A stretch of DNA of 64,000 bases from a virus, in the IMG/VR virus record IMGVR_UViG_3300021141_000706; one strand, written 5' to 3'. Below are positions 5,280 through 31,309 of this stretch, one piece after another (position 1 is the stretch's first letter; every line of letters starts with the position of its first letter). The position numbers were made by a program, and so were the translations under genes. The notes beneath the pieces are model-generated. The model did not search any database. It was not told where the DNA came from and saw only the letters and a list, made by a program, of their open reading frames with translations.

Positions 5280-5287
5280 AATATATA
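5280..5287 (+). promoter_or_regulatory. AATATATA putative phage late-promoter motif (representative of about 16 copies)
   Basis: Found just upstream of starts at 5280, 9441, 12761, 14431, 18960, 28401, 28859, 31787, 38185 (+) and 9413, 13931, 21694, 25735, 35797, 39711 (-). Confidence 0.6.
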
Positions 5288-5306: not shown

Positions 5307-5378
5307 TGCGGGGTAGAGCAGGGGTAGCTCGCTAGGCTCATAACCTAGAGGTCGGAGGTTCGAATCCTTCCCCCGCTA
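5307..5378 (+). tRNA. tRNA-Met(CAT), initiator-like
   Basis: Cloverleaf; ctagg-ctCATaa-cctag; 1:72 mismatch and A11:U24. Confidence 0.9.
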
Positions 5379-5461: not shown

Positions 5462-5539
5462 ATGACAACAATTACTAACATAGCGTATTATTATGAGGGA
5501 GAGCGTGGCTCAAACGTCAGACTAATGTCTATGTCGTAA
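5462..5539 (+). CDS. Attenuator leader peptide 1 (MTTITNIAYYYEGERGSNVRLMSMS), Tyr/Glu-sensing
   Basis: 25 codons with TAT TAT TAT GAG GGA GAG; contains gtcagact complementary to the terminator arm; Tyr/Glu tRNAs downstream. Confidence 0.8.
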   Translation: MTTITNIAYYYEGERGSNVRLMSMS

Positions 5540-5561
5540 TGGAATCATTATGATATTAACT

Positions 5562-5594
5562 AACCCAGTCTGACTTATCAGACTGGGTTTTTTG
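5562..5594 (+). terminator. Attenuator terminator 1
   Basis: aacccagtctga-ctta-tcagactgggtt plus T-tract. Confidence 0.85.
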
Positions 5595-5608
5595 TTTTAA
5601 ATTAAATT

Positions 5609-5885: not shown

Positions 5886-5916
5886 TTTGGATAATTAAAA
5901 AATATCCTTATCTTTG
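5886..5916 (+). promoter_or_regulatory. Internal Bacteroidota-type promoter before the second Glu/Tyr tRNA pair
   Basis: TTTG(5886-89)-N19-TATCTTTG(5909-16). Confidence 0.65.
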
Positions 5917-5932: not shown

Positions 5933-6004
5933 GGTCCGTTAGTGAAGCGGTTAACACGCTGCCCTTTCACGGCAGAGGCACGGGTTCGAATCCCGTACGG
6001 ACTA
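5933..6004 (+). tRNA. tRNA-Glu(TTC)
   Basis: ctgcc-ctTTCac-ggcag. Confidence 0.93.
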
Positions 6005-6010
6005 CAATAT

Positions 6011-6093
6011 TGGAAGGTGGGTGAGTGGTTAAAACCGACAGACTGTAAATCTGTTCTCGCAAGAGTACGGGGGTTCGAATCCCTCCCTTCCAA
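6011..6093 (+). tRNA. tRNA-Tyr(GTA)
   Basis: acaga-ctGTAaa-tctgt; variable arm. Confidence 0.93.
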
Positions 6094-6159
6094 CAAAAAT
6101 TAAAAATAACTAAAAAGGGAGTTAAAACTTTTTATATATACATTAATATAATTAAAACG

Positions 6160-6240
6160 ATGAAAAATTTAAATAACATATCAACAGCGAAAATAGGAGG
6201 CGGCGCGGGAGCGAATGTCACTGGCTGGATTATGTTGTAA
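6160..6240 (+). CDS. Attenuator leader peptide 2 (MKNLNNISTAKIGGGAGANVTGWIML), Gly/Ala-sensing
   Basis: GGA GGC GGC GCG GGA GCG run; tggctggatt pairs with the terminator 5' arm; Gly/Ala tRNAs downstream. Confidence 0.8.
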   Translation: MKNLNNISTAKIGGGAGANVTGWIML

Positions 6241-6263
6241 TTTTTTATCAAAAGAATTAAACG

Positions 6264-6295
6264 AAACCCAGTCAATCAAATGACTGGGTTTTTTT
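6264..6295 (+). terminator. Attenuator terminator 2
   Basis: aaacccagtca-atcaaa-tgactgggttt plus T-tract. Confidence 0.85.
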
Positions 6296-6304
6296 ATTTT
6301 ATAT

Positions 6305-6394
6305 TGGCGAATAGCAGTGGTGTCTTATACACACTATACCTGTAGCGGTAACTTGAGATAGTATCAAACGTGGGTTCGAATCCCACTTCGCCAA
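6305..6394 (+). ncRNA. Non-canonical tRNA-like RNA (possible TAT anticodon arm, no clear D arm)
   Basis: Perfect acceptor tggcgaa/ttcgcca and T arm gtggg-ttcgaat-cccac; atypical core. Confidence 0.6.
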
Positions 6395-6402
6395 CAAAAA
6401 TT

Positions 6403-9407: not shown

Positions 9408-9452
9408 AGACTTATATATTAAATTTTATACCTAATAAATAATATATACTGA

Positions 9453-18972: not shown

Positions 18973-19083
18973 ATGAAAACAATGAATTTAAATATGAACA
19001 TGAATACACTGACAGTGGTGAATAATACGTTATGTATTAGACCGTCTGAGGGCTTCGTCATATCTAAACGATTTGTTAGTTAA
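18973..19083 (+). CDS. Attenuator leader peptide 3 (MKTMNLNMNMNTLTVVNNTLCIRPSEGFVISKRFVS)
   Basis: 22 of the first 23 residues are M/T/N/L/V/C/I/R, the set of downstream tRNAs; 13/14-nt antiterminator. Confidence 0.85.
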   Translation: MKTMNLNMNMNTLTVVNNTLCIRPSEGFVISKRFVS

Positions 19084-19111
19084 TATAACAAATTTTAATA
19101 AAGAATACTCG

Positions 19112-19144
19112 AAACCCTCAGACACAAAATCTGAGGGTTTTTTT
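19112..19144 (+). terminator. Attenuator terminator 3
   Basis: aaaccctcaga-cacaaaa-tctgagggttt plus T-tract. Confidence 0.88.
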
Positions 19145-19159
19145 ATGCTCTTAAAACAA

Positions 19160-28412: not shown

Positions 28413-28781
28413 ATGAAATATTTACAATCAATAAATGAATATCAAAGAACCGTAGGATTCAGATATTCTGAACCAAAAGAATCTTATAATATTGACATAT
28501 TATTAAGAGGTGAAGATATCACTGAAGATAAAATAATCTTAGGTTTATCTAAAGTTAGTGAGTTGTTTTACGACCAAGAGTCTGTTGAAGTTAATATTCT
28601 TGATGAAGGAACTGTTGCTGAGTTAGAAGATGGTGCTGTTGAAATAGATGCTGTTGCTCATTTTAACATTACTGTTTATAATGAAAGAGAAATACTTACT
28701 ATAGTTGAAGAACTAGGTAGAAAATTAACACCTTTTAATATTGAAATATTAGATTTCAAATCAAAAGAAAATTTCAAATAA
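28413..28781 (+). CDS. Hypothetical protein (MKYLQSINEY N-terminus)
   Basis: AATATATA upstream. Confidence 0.6.
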   Translation: MKYLQSINEYQRTVGFRYSEPKESYNIDILLRGEDITEDKIILGLSKVSELFYDQESVEVNILDEGTVAELEDGAVEIDAVAHFNITVYNEREILTIVEELGRKLTPFNIEILDFKSKENFK

Positions 28782-28793
28782 AAATAAAAAATA

Positions 28794-28866
28794 TTTGACA
28801 AATTAAAACTTTGTTGTATATTTGTATAAAATAAGAACAAAAGGAAGAAATCCTTTTTAATATATA
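28794..28866 (+). promoter_or_regulatory. Host-type plus late-type promoters for leader 4
   Basis: TTTG(28794)-N19-TATATTTG(28817); AATATATA(28859). Confidence 0.65.
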
Positions 28867-28871
28867 CTGAA

Positions 28872-28970
28872 ATGAAAAACTTAAACTTAAATATCGTTAA
28901 CCCGCAACCACAAGTTGTAATCGATCAGGATCCTGATACGAAAGGGGCTAACTATGTGGTTTTAAGTTAA
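28872..28970 (+). CDS. Attenuator leader peptide 4 (MKNLNLNIVNPQPQVVIDQDPDTKGANYVVLS), Pro/Asp/Gln-rich
   Basis: PQPQ..DQDPD; ggctaact pairs with terminator arm agttagtc; Pro/Asp tRNAs downstream. Confidence 0.78.
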   Translation: MKNLNLNIVNPQPQVVIDQDPDTKGANYVVLS

Positions 28971-28994
28971 GAAAATATTTAACTATGAAACATT

Positions 28995-29027
28995 ACCCAG
29001 TTAGTCGAAAGATTAACTGGGTTTTTT
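28995..29027 (+). terminator. Attenuator terminator 4
   Basis: acccagttagtc-gaaa-gattaactgggt plus T-tract. Confidence 0.85.
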
Positions 29028-29042
29028 GTTTTTAGTAAAAAA

Positions 29043-29116
29043 CGGGTAGTGACTAAGGTTTTAAGCACGGGGGCTCTGGAGGCTTCAGTTAGTCGGTTCG
29101 ATTCCGACCTACCCGA
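29043..29116 (+). tRNA. tRNA-Pro(TGG), atypical anticodon loop (C33)
   Basis: C1:G72, A73; ggggc-tcTGGag-gcttc. Confidence 0.7.
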
Positions 29117-29159
29117 CAAAATACTCTTTAGAGAATAGAGTAAAAGAATTCTCAAATAC

Positions 29160-29232
29160 GGATGTGAGGTCAAACGGTTAAGATGTCTGCCTGTCACGCA
29201 GTTCGGAGCGGGTTCAACTCCCGTCACGTCCG
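29160..29232 (+). tRNA. tRNA-Asp(GTC)
   Basis: ctgc-ctGTCac-gcag; G73. Confidence 0.9.
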
Positions 29233-29238
29233 CAAATT

Positions 29239-29309
29239 GGTCCTGTAGTTAAACGGCTATAATGTCGCCCTGCACGGCGAAGTTCGGAGTTCGATTCTCC
29301 GTGGGACCG
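29239..29309 (+). pseudogene. tRNA-Asp-like with 6-nt anticodon loop (ctgcac)
   Basis: Asp-type body with G73; loop is one T short of ctgtcac. Confidence 0.65.
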
Positions 29310-29314
29310 CAAAA

Positions 29315-29391
29315 CGAGATGTTGGGGAGTCCGGTTACCCCGCCTGCTTTGGGAGCAGGAGAACTCGCAGGTTCGAATCCTGCCATCTCGA
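29315..29391 (+). tRNA. tRNA-Pro(TGG)
   Basis: cctgc-ttTGGga-gcagg; C1:G72. Confidence 0.93.
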
Positions 29392-29421
29392 CAAAGAAAC
29401 AAAATATTAATAAATAGAATT

Positions 29422-29472
29422 ATGAAAACAACATCACAATACCAACAACAACAAATTAATCGAACAGATTGA
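29422..29472 (+). CDS. Attenuator leader peptide 5 (MKTTSQYQQQQINRTD), Gln-sensing
   Basis: 5 CAA codons, 4 consecutive; cagattga pairs with terminator tcaatctg; tRNA-Gln x2 and glnS downstream. Confidence 0.85.
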   Translation: MKTTSQYQQQQINRTD

Positions 29473-29500
29473 TAACGGTATCGTATTGTTAAAACTTTAC

Positions 29501-29535
29501 AAACCCTATTCAATCTGATTGAATAGGGTTTTTTT
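29501..29535 (+). terminator. Attenuator terminator 5
   Basis: aaaccctattcaat-ctg-attgaatagggttt plus T-tract. Confidence 0.88.
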
Positions 29536-29537
29536 AT

Positions 29538-29609
29538 TGCTCCATAGTATATGGGTGATCATATCTGTCTTTGAAACAGATGAGCTTGGTTCGAGTCCAA
29601 GTGGAGCAA
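29538..29609 (+). tRNA. tRNA-Gln(TTG)
   Basis: tctgt-ctTTGaa-acaga; U1:A72. Confidence 0.88.
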
Positions 29610-29615
29610 CAACAA

Positions 29616-29686
29616 TGTCTCGTAGTGTAACGGCAGCACAGAAGATTTTGACTCTTCTAGTCTAGGTTCGAATCCTAGCGAGACAA
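29616..29686 (+). tRNA. tRNA-Gln(TTG)
   Basis: gaaga-ttTTGac-tcttc; U1:A72. Confidence 0.92.
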
Positions 29687-29704
29687 CTAAAAAATATAAA
29701 AATT

Positions 29705-31309
29705 ATGAATTTCATTGAAGATAAAATATTAGACAAAAATAATCTTGATAAATTAACATTAAGATTTCCACCAGAACCAAATGGTTACTTACATATTGGT
29801 CACGCTAAATCCATTATACTTAATTTTGGATTAGCTGAAAAGTATAATAGACCTTGTAATCTAAGGTTCGATGATACAAATCCAACTACTGAAGATACTC
29901 ACTATGTAGAATCAATTGTAAAAGATATAGAATGGCTTGGTTACAAACCAGCTAATATTTTCTATACATCTGATTATTTTGACTTTCTTTACAATTGTGC
30001 GATTACTTTAATTAAAAAAGGCTTAGCTTATGTTGATGATTCAACATCTGAAGAAATTGCTTTAATGAAAGGAACTCCAACTTCAGTTGGTAAAGACTCA
30101 CCTTACAAATCTAGATCAGTAGAAGAAAACTTAGACTTATTTAATAGAATGAGATTAGGTGAATTCACCGAAGGTTCTAAAATCTTGAGAGCTAACATTG
30201 ATATGACTTCTCCAAATATGATTTTAAGAGATCCAGTTATTTATAGAATAATCTCTAAGTCACATCACAGAACTGGTGATACTTGGAAGATTTATCCAAT
30301 GTATGACTTTGCTCATCCTTTATCTGATTATAAAGAAGGTATCACTGATTCACTTTGTACTTTAGAATTTGAAGTTCATAGACCTTTATATATGTGGGTA
30401 TTAGAAAATTGTGATTTAGAAAATTCATTACCAGAAGAAACTGAGTTTGCTCGTTTGAACATTGACTATACAGTTATGTCAAAGAGAAAGTTAAAAAGAC
30501 TTGTAGAAGAATCTTATGTTACAGGATGGGATGATCCAAGAATGCCAACTATATCAGGTTTAAGAAGAAGAGGTTTTACACCAAATGCTATTAAAGATTT
30601 TTGTGATAGAATTTCTGTTACAAGAAAAGAATCAGTTGTTTCTTACTTACTTTTAGAAGAATGTTTAAGAACTGATTTGAATGTTGTTGCTAATAGACTA
30701 ATGGGTGTCATGTATCCGATTAAGTTAGTTATTACTAATTGGGATATGGGAACTGAAATGGTTGAAGTTGAAAATAATCCTGGTGATGAAAGTGCTGGAG
30801 TGAGAATGATTCCTTTTAGTGGTGAATTATTTATTGAGGCGGAAGATTTCAGAGAAGAAGCCAATAACAAATTCCACAGATTAAAATTAGGCAGTGAAGT
30901 AAGATTAAAAGGTGCTTATGTTATTAAGGCTAATGAAGTTATCAAGAATGAATTAGGGGAAATTATTGAGATCAGATGTACTTATGATCCTTTAACAAGA
31001 TCGGGTATGACTTTTGAAAGAAAGATTAAAGGAACTATTCACTGGGTATCTGCTGAACACGGAGTTAGAATAAATGTAAATGAATATGATAGATTATTTA
31101 ATGATGAATCACCTGATAAAAATGAAGATGATTTTATCAATTATATCAATCCAGATTCACTTATTATTAACGACAAGGCAATCCTTGAACCTCACGTTTT
31201 AAACGTCAAGGAGCCTGTTCAAATGATGAGAAAAGGGTATTATATTTTAGATACTGACGGTAAAAGTTTCAATAAAACTGTAAGTTTGAAAGAAGGATGG
31301 GTAGGTTAA
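29705..31309 (+). CDS. glnS: Glutaminyl-tRNA synthetase
   Basis: RFPPEPNGYLHIGHAKS, RFDDTNP, IYPMYDFAH, SLCTLEF, VMSKRKL, GWDDPRMPT, KGTIHWVS. Confidence 0.96.
   Translation: MNFIEDKILDKNNLDKLTLRFPPEPNGYLHIGHAKSIILNFGLAEKYNRPCNLRFDDTNPTTEDTHYVESIVKDIEWLGYKPANIFYTSDYFDFLYNCAITLIKKGLAYVDDSTSEEIALMKGTPTSVGKDSPYKSRSVEENLDLFNRMRLGEFTEGSKILRANIDMTSPNMILRDPVIYRIISKSHHRTGDTWKIYPMYDFAHPLSDYKEGITDSLCTLEFEVHRPLYMWVLENCDLENSLPEETEFARLNIDYTVMSKRKLKRLVEESYVTGWDDPRMPTISGLRRRGFTPNAIKDFCDRISVTRKESVVSYLLLEECLRTDLNVVANRLMGVMYPIKLVITNWDMGTEMVEVENNPGDESAGVRMIPFSGELFIEAEDFREEANNKFHRLKLGSEVRLKGAYVIKANEVIKNELGEIIEIRCTYDPLTRSGMTFERKIKGTIHWVSAEHGVRINVNEYDRLFNDESPDKNEDDFINYINPDSLIINDKAILEPHVLNVKEPVQMMRKGYYILDTDGKSFNKTVSLKEGWVG

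Follow-up and report, generated by a model that had tools for sequence, protein, structure and literature searches.

Leader-peptide attenuation is a textbook means of controlling amino-acid biosynthesis and, in a few cases, synthetase genes. The trpL, hisL, pheL, leuL, thrL and ilv leaders combine a leader of 14-30 codons carrying a run of regulatory codons with helices 1:2, 2:3 and 3:4 and an intrinsic terminator; in trp and his, the regulatory codons lie about 11-15 nucleotides (nt) before the antiterminator strand. The pheST attenuator of E. coli likewise has a leader peptide rich in cognate codons and a terminator/antiterminator pair, which control a synthetase gene by sensing charged tRNA. 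Attenuators controlling a synthetase have also been predicted for trpS and leuS of Streptomyces (PMC1262725). Because they control a synthetase, these are the nearest precedents for the element considered here, a short glutamine (Gln) leader in a 64,000-nt stretch of viral DNA (IMG/VR record IMGVR_UViG_3300021141_000706; this whole stretch is hereafter "the window"). We conclude from its anatomy that the Gln leader is very likely a ribosome-mediated (leader-peptide) transcription attenuator, which gates tRNA-Gln genes and, in the same transcript, glnS, the gene for glutaminyl-tRNA synthetase (GlnRS). Textbooks describe no classical Gln attenuator that we are aware of.

The Gln leader shares the leader length, codon run and terminator of the trpL/hisL type, with a similar predicted helix layout, and its regulatory codons stand 11 nt before the antiterminator strand. 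The classical leaders serve biosynthetic enzymes and close their loop through the amino-acid pool, whereas the loop here would run through the supply of tRNA and synthetase. The Gln leader works like the His, Leu, Thr and Trp leader families of Rfam but is a member of none. It differs from pheST of E. coli in its amino acid (Gln), in its setting (a phage of a Bacteroidetes-type host) and in gene order, with tRNA genes of the same specificity first and the synthetase after them; the two have no sequence or Rfam relationship. With the T-box riboswitches of aminoacyl-tRNA synthetase genes in Firmicutes it shares the goal of expressing a synthetase when charged tRNA is low, by a choice between terminator and antiterminator. 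A T-box, however, senses uncharged tRNA directly through a structured RNA of ~200 nt and needs no translation, while the Gln leader would act through a translated open reading frame (ORF) of 16 codons. An Rfam search of 28700-29800 at E <= 1 returned only tRNAs and sub-threshold noise, and no leader, T-box or riboswitch family. Our literature search found no report of attenuation controlling tRNA genes, nor of such leaders in phages, and the paper on the nearest relatives of this phage mentions neither attenuation nor leaders. The mechanism looks classical, and the target, a phage's own tRNA genes with the matching synthetase, looks new.

The Gln leader and its terminator

An original prediction had proposed an attenuator at this position, controlling two tRNA-Gln genes and glnS. 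The coordinates that it gave, among them those of two complementary octamers, cagattga and tcaatctg, were all correct on re-reading the sequence, as was its count of five CAA codons. The ORF, MKTTSQYQQQQINRTD, has its Gln codons, all CAA, at 29437-39 and 29443-54 (four consecutive). They make up 5 of its 16 codons (31%), versus a Gln share of 2.5% in the long ORFs of the window, where 88% of Gln codons are CAA. By chance, both strands of 64 kb should together hold 0.045 runs of at least four CAR codons; two positions were found, and the sole run on the plus strand, at 29443, lies inside the leader. Compared with shuffles, the fold of the leader region has z = -4.5. The ORF is followed by a strong intrinsic terminator, whose 5' arm (29502-17) we call region 3, and the length from ATG to terminator is 114 nt. 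Compensatory changes occur at 4 of 6 consensus pairs in the terminator stems of the related versions described below.

Downstream, 3 nt separate the T-run from the first of two tRNA-Gln genes, and 17 nt separate the second from glnS. The glnS product scores above both curated cut-offs (TIGR00440, 658.7 bits against 425.8; NF011291, 717.6 against 681). Motif and terminator scans of the plus strand detected no promoter-like or terminator-like site from the terminator to the end of glnS.

Alternative RNA pairings

In the minimum-energy fold of the full leader, the terminator is accompanied by a hairpin, P2, and an outer helix, P1. The 5' strand of P2, AUUAAUC, lies just past the Gln run; its 3' strand is region 2, over the stop codon. 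P2 is paired in 97% of cells across 23 sequences, and its sequence is near-invariant. Within region 2, CAGAUUGA (cagattga, 29465-72) overlaps the TGA, starts 11 nt past the last CAA and is perfectly complementary to tcaatctg (29510-17), in the 5' arm and loop of the terminator, all as originally described. The duplex of 29464-80 with 29502-17 has a predicted energy of -13.1 kcal/mol and is mutually exclusive with the terminator. Together, the predicted alternative pairings would give a 1:2 / 2:3 / 3:4 layout.

The geometry of the leader was examined with the generally known size of the ribosome footprint. A ribosome stalled on the Gln codons would end just short of region 2, and one at the stop codon would cover it. 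For the stalled state, the RNA under a ribosome whose A site holds the last CAA and the untranscribed 3' arm of the terminator were removed before folding. In the remaining RNA, AGAUUGA...GGU pairs with ACC...UCAAUCU at -11.2 kcal/mol and engages 10 nt of the terminator arm. Measured against shuffled versions of the upstream segment, this antiterminator fold reaches z = -3.1 (p = 0.003). In masked folds for a ribosome at the stop codon, 0 nt of the arm are paired.

Homologous leaders

Homologues were gathered by a GlnRS protein search and by DNA-pattern searches in IMG/VR and metagenomes, with two GenBank relatives added; the samples behind the related contigs are from freshwater and sediment. 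They comprise 24 distinct leader-plus-terminator versions from huge-phage contigs and metagenomes and one further locus, L009, with the leader MVNITINIQQQQQQQTLNKGSGIALS and a terminator also unrelated in sequence. In all 25, the leader begins with an ATG, carries 3-7 Gln codons in a run and ends in a stop codon, and a strong terminator (-14 to -21 kcal/mol) follows. A predicted antiterminator pairing is likewise present in every version, also where the terminators are unrelated. Changes within the run are exchanges of CAA and CAG or insertions and deletions of whole codons. Inspection by eye showed no clean correlation of leader CAG codons with a tRNA-Gln(CUG) downstream.

In 12 of 12 homologues folded, region 2 starts 11 nt past the last Gln codon, and this spacing holds in L006, L008 and L009 despite stop codons 24-36 nt downstream. 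Such constancy is hard to explain otherwise than by the size of a stalled ribosome. In stalled-state folds, 11 of the 12 form an antiterminator of -10.6 to -17.7 kcal/mol with 9-14 nt of the arm engaged; the value for the twelfth is -9.6 kcal/mol.

Region 2 and the terminator arm also appear to have changed together. Lineages with other terminator 5' arms (GUUAGUCUG, GUUAAUC) have the bases past the stop codon altered to match: arm GUUAGUCUG goes with region 2 CAGAUUGAUG, arm CCAGUUAAUC with GAUUGACUGG, and, in L009, arm CCUGGAACUU with GGGUUCCGG. MAFFT misaligned the divergent terminators, and per-sequence folds and a comparison of cognate with non-cognate duplexes were used instead. Cognate duplexes average -12.7 kcal/mol versus -11.3 for non-cognate ones (Wilcoxon p = 0.0016, for sequences that are related and not independent). 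The difference is modest, as the core AGAUUGA/UCAAUCU is common to most versions; L009, L032, L008 and the L002 class are the cases that tell most. Region 2 of L009 reaches -15.6 kcal/mol on its own arm versus a mean of -8.3 on the others, and no other arm does as well. We take this preference for cognate pairs as supporting rather than decisive evidence.

The variation among the versions is also informative about the peptide. If the ORF encoded a functional Gln-rich micropeptide and were simply followed by an ordinary terminator, its conservation and the expectation that it would be translated would be accounted for, but the residue that interrupts the Gln run varies (Y/F/I/V/L), as do the N-terminal residues, and the C-terminal INRTD is explained by the RNA pairing of P2 and region 2. 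Further, L009 keeps the layout with a different peptide, and in 23 of the 24 versions the ORF stands directly before tRNA-Gln. A micropeptide function is, on these grounds, extremely unlikely.

Table 1. Features of the Gln unit and of related elements in the window. Rfam scores of the two tRNA-Gln genes are listed in the order given for 29538-29610 and 29616-29687.
Feature	Position	Strand	Basis or remark
Leader ORF MKTTSQYQQQQINRTD, 16 codons	29422-29472	+	ATG at 29422, TGA at 29470-72
P1, predicted long-range helix around Gln run and P2	29430-43 with 29477-90	+	folds
P2, predicted anti-antiterminator hairpin AUUAAUC-GAACA-GAUUGAU	29455-29473 (29455-61 with 29467-73)	+	folds
Region 2, predicted antiterminator 5' strand ACAGAUUGAUAACGGUA	29464-29480	+	pairs with 29502-29517; overlaps stop codon
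Intrinsic terminator, 14-bp stem, 3-nt loop, T-run	stem 29501-29531, with T-run to 29535	+	fold, terminator scan, compensatory changes
tRNA-Gln (UUG), copy 1	29538-29610	+	anticodon ttg; Rfam 51.9 bits
tRNA-Gln (UUG), copy 2	29616-29687	+	anticodon ttg; Rfam 65.4 bits
glnS, glutamine--tRNA ligase, 534 aa	29705-31309	+	TIGR00440, NF011291
Host (Bacteroidetes)-type promoter TTTG-N19-TATATTTG	28794-28824	+	motif scan; precedes leader 4
Leader 4, putative attenuator, MKNLNLNIVNPQPQVVIDQDPDTKGANYVVLS	28872-29030, terminator 28995-29022	+	would gate Pro/Asp tRNA genes 29043-29392
TTAATAAATAG	29407-29417	+	9/11 match to recurrent motif TTAATATATAC, same distance from ATG
Leader YYYEGE			before Glu/Tyr tRNAs; codons match tRNAs
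Leader GGGAGA			before Gly/Ala tRNAs; codons match tRNAs
Leader MKTMNLNMNMNTLTVVNNTLCIR			before mixed Ile/Arg/Asn/Leu/Val/Thr/Met tRNA array; amino acids match tRNAs
Leader 4 (as above), NPQPQVVIDQDPD (Pro/Asp/Gln)			before Pro/Asp tRNAs; amino acids match tRNAs

Proposed mechanism

We observed the sequence elements of an attenuator, their alternative pairings, a constant spacing, conservation of the design and co-location with tRNA-Gln genes. From this anatomy we infer that the leader is translated, that ribosomes stall in it and that the stall has a regulatory outcome. In the scheme that we propose, transcription would arrive from upstream, and the 16-codon leader would be translated on the nascent RNA, with the speed of CAA/CAG decoding being sensed. 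When charged tRNA-Gln is plentiful, the ribosome would reach the UGA and cover region 2. After its release, P2, possibly with P1, would hold region 2; the terminator would form, and transcription would stop 3 nt before tRNA-Gln. A leader that is not translated should behave in the same manner, with region 2 sequestered and the terminator formed. When charged tRNA-Gln is scarce, the ribosome would stall on the CAA run, its front edge covering AUUAAUC and leaving region 2 free to pair with the emerging 5' arm of the terminator. The terminator would then be blocked, and both tRNA-Gln genes and glnS would be transcribed. The phage would thus probably make tRNA-Gln and GlnRS only when ribosomes decode Gln codons slowly. 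These products would restore Gln decoding and shut the switch, a negative feedback on decoding capacity, not on amino-acid synthesis.

The attenuator reading of the original prediction gains from this work, since the short ORF with its cognate codon run, the terminator and a suitably placed antiterminator strand can all be recognised in silico, and 24 related versions and the unrelated L009 keep this design. Several observations weigh on the other side. The terminator is more stable than the antiterminator at equilibrium, so the model relies on kinetics, as it does for trp. The core AGAUUGA/UCAAUCU and P2 are almost invariant, which amounts to conservation without covariation. P1 is predicted in most homologues, but 66% of its cells are paired, shuffles do equally well and its covariation is not significant. 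Many versions are close relatives and some are apparent recombinants (L035), and the counts overstate their independence. Finally, the leader ORF has no Shine-Dalgarno sequence, as is expected with a Bacteroidetes host, and its initiation cannot be judged from sequence. We do not claim P1 as a supported element, because column-based covariation in the MAFFT alignment was no better than in shuffles.

Genes behind the switch

In 23 of the 24 versions, 2-4 tRNA-Gln genes come right after the T-run. The first starts 63-72 nt past the stop codon in most versions and 121 nt past it in one. The exception is L028 (7550-7650 and downstream), where the tRNA-Gln behind the attenuator is a truncated remnant followed by an inserted ORF; a tRNA-Gln(CUG) stands 2.3 kb further on. 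The inserted ORF is preceded by the motif AATATATAA and is possibly an insertion of the homing-endonuclease type.

The coupling of tRNA to synthetase that had been proposed is found in most relatives and fails in two. Of the versions with enough sequence, most have glnS downstream and on the same strand. In the window and in L001-L004, L006, L007, L010 and L029 it follows the tRNAs directly, and in L008, L009, L024 and L035 it lies 0.5-1 kb further on, with small ORFs intervening in L008 and L009. L011, on the other hand, has glnS and neither tRNA-Gln nor leader, and L012 has leader and tRNA-Gln but lacks glnS within 5.4 kb. The switch therefore goes with the tRNA-Gln genes. It seems to belong primarily to these, with glnS a frequent co-transcribed passenger, as in the window.

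Promoters and the question of two attenuators in series

The original prediction had noted that no clear separate host-type promoter is visible for this unit. Indeed, TAnnTTTG is absent between 28825 and 29720 in the motif scan of the window, and upstream of the Gln unit there is a single host-type promoter, the one that precedes leader 4. Transcripts that reach the Gln leader from this promoter must therefore first pass terminator 4. Leader 4 has, as had also been stated, Gln codons of its own (three); its homologue in L010 is directly followed by tRNA-Gln, and both facts fit two gates in series. The Gln leader starts 29 nt past tRNA-Pro. Leader 4 probably gates the Gln unit too, by read-through, and we somewhat favor read-through from the leader-4 unit as the main source of transcripts for the Gln unit.

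The suggestion of two attenuators in series is accordingly plausible for the window, with two observations that temper it. First, in L008, L012, L016, L019 and L035 the Gln leader is preceded, at ~30 nt, by a canonical TTTG-N19-TAnnTTTG promoter, and therefore the Gln module can stand alone as a unit of promoter, leader, terminator and tRNA. Second, the sequence TTAATAAATAG, just upstream of the leader, resembles a candidate phage promoter and is conserved as a variant in the "nested" relatives L002, L003, L004, L007, L018, L025 and L030. Its role may be that of a phage-type promoter or of an initiation context. For both reasons the series arrangement stays a plausible reading and no firmer.

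The motif in question, TTAATATATA[AC], is found repeatedly 3-5 nt ahead of ATG codons, and also 18 nt ahead of the tRNA-Met at 5307 (for example at 5281, 6134, 18961, 28402, 28860 and 31788, and on the minus strand at 9419, 21700, 25741 and 39717). The copies ahead of tRNA units share a longer form, AAAACTTTTTAATATATAC. We regard the motif as a candidate phage-specific promoter that would give near-leaderless transcripts. A scan with the sigma-70 consensus, which gave 38 matches versus 26 expected, is uninformative at 29% G+C; the motif of the Bacteroidetes type says more.

These promoter data bear on another account of the hairpin, namely that it is the terminator of the upstream Pro/Asp tRNA operon, that the ORF is fortuitous and that tRNA-Gln and glnS are transcribed from a separate, unrecognised promoter. 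The hairpin does stand at the end of a tRNA block, and TTAATAAATAG does resemble a possible phage-promoter motif, but that sequence is upstream of the leader rather than past the terminator, where only 3 nt precede tRNA-Gln and where 29535-29705 holds no promoter-like motif. Moreover, the relatives with a promoter before the leader still have the terminator between that promoter and tRNA-Gln. A fortuitous ORF would also leave unexplained why the ORF and its Gln run are kept in 25 versions and the 11-nt spacing in all 12 that were folded. We consider a plain terminator highly unlikely.

Sister leaders

The window contains four more units of leader ORF and terminator before tRNA blocks, at 5462-5595, 6160-6297, 18973-19146 and 28872-29030, and their codons or amino acids match the tRNAs that follow (Table 1). 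All five leaders pair with their own terminator arm, four of them better than with the arm of any other leader. The Gln leader reaches -13.1 kcal/mol on its own arm versus -3.0 to -10.4 on those of the other four; leader 2 is the exception, with -11.5 on its own arm versus -13.5 and -14.2 on two similar arms. The Gln unit is distinguished by a single amino-acid specificity, by a cognate synthetase gene behind its tRNAs and by its position directly after another attenuated tRNA block.

The sister leaders help to decide what would set the switch. A genuine terminator/antiterminator choice could be made by a protein that binds CAA repeats, or by tRNA-Gln itself, bound directly as in a T-box, since the unstructured CAA repeats could be a binding platform and the UUG anticodon of tRNA-Gln is complementary to CAA; there is also a weak, sub-threshold match to a PyrR site (24.6 bits against a gathering score of 54, E = 0.72). 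No T-box or riboswitch family was found in the Rfam search, however, and the leader is far too short for a T-box and has no element to pair with an acceptor end. Nor would binding account for the conservation of ATG, frame and stop codon, or for changes in the run that are synonymous or comprise whole codons. The main argument against a switch operated by protein or tRNA is that a translating ribosome alone explains all five leaders: the four sisters have differing codon sets that match their own tRNAs, and one ribosome mechanism would stand in for five binding factors. A switch of this other kind is, in our judgment, quite unlikely, and the translating ribosome remains our preferred sensor.

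A second pair of Glu/Tyr tRNA genes (5933-6094) lacks a leader and is preceded by a host-type promoter of its own at 5886-5916 (TTTG...TATCTTTG). One Glu/Tyr pair looks attenuated, and its duplicate looks constitutive.

Possible role in phage biology

We lean slightly toward a wider view, in which huge Bacteroidetes-infecting phages run a modular "decoding homeostat" whose tRNA blocks would be transcribed only upon stalling at the matching codons. The Gln module would also control a synthetase, and would in this way measure and correct charged tRNA-Gln independently of the host; behind the Pro/Asp/Gln attenuator it would form a two-stage gate. Such a system could induce replacement tRNAs if, in defence, the host depleted or cleaved its own. 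If this view is correct, the tRNA and synthetase genes of phages would not be constitutive "codon-usage patches" but would be feedback-regulated by the decoding speed of specific codons. It would provide a concrete answer to the questions of why huge phages carry many translation genes and how these are deployed. It would also make available compact codon-specific sensors (~115 nt) for use in Bacteroidetes hosts, and several amino acids would be covered by natural variants.

The window and its other tRNA genes

The window has 29% G+C, and its 32 tRNA genes form four clusters. The nearest relatives in public databases are two unannotated "uncultured phage" genomes, 634,780 and 642,428 bp long, and DNA identity to both is ~76-78% over the tRNA-Gln/glnS region. 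About ten TTTG-N19-21-TAnnTTTG motifs, which we take to be the housekeeping promoter consensus of Bacteroidetes, are in keeping with a Bacteroidetes-type host. We take the source to be a huge, uncultured phage of such a host.

Some tRNA genes of the window and its relatives are unusual. A tRNA-like gene at 29043-29119 was missed by ARAGORN and matches the tRNA clan of Rfam weakly; inspection of its anticodon arm by eye gives Pro(UGG). Its homologue in L001 (about 1505-1580) reads Pro(AGG) and has compensating changes in the stem. ARAGORN reports four tRNA genes without a normal three-base anticodon ("gc", "gt", "gtag", "cc"), at 29239-29310 in the window, at 1744-1815 in L004, at 1427-1500 in L001 and at 6305-6395 in the window. 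The Asp-like tRNA at 29239-29310 has CUGCAC, with a 6-nt loop, where tRNA-Asp has CUGUCAC. Genes of this type, which lack a normal anticodon, recur in related phages beside normal tRNA-Asp genes.

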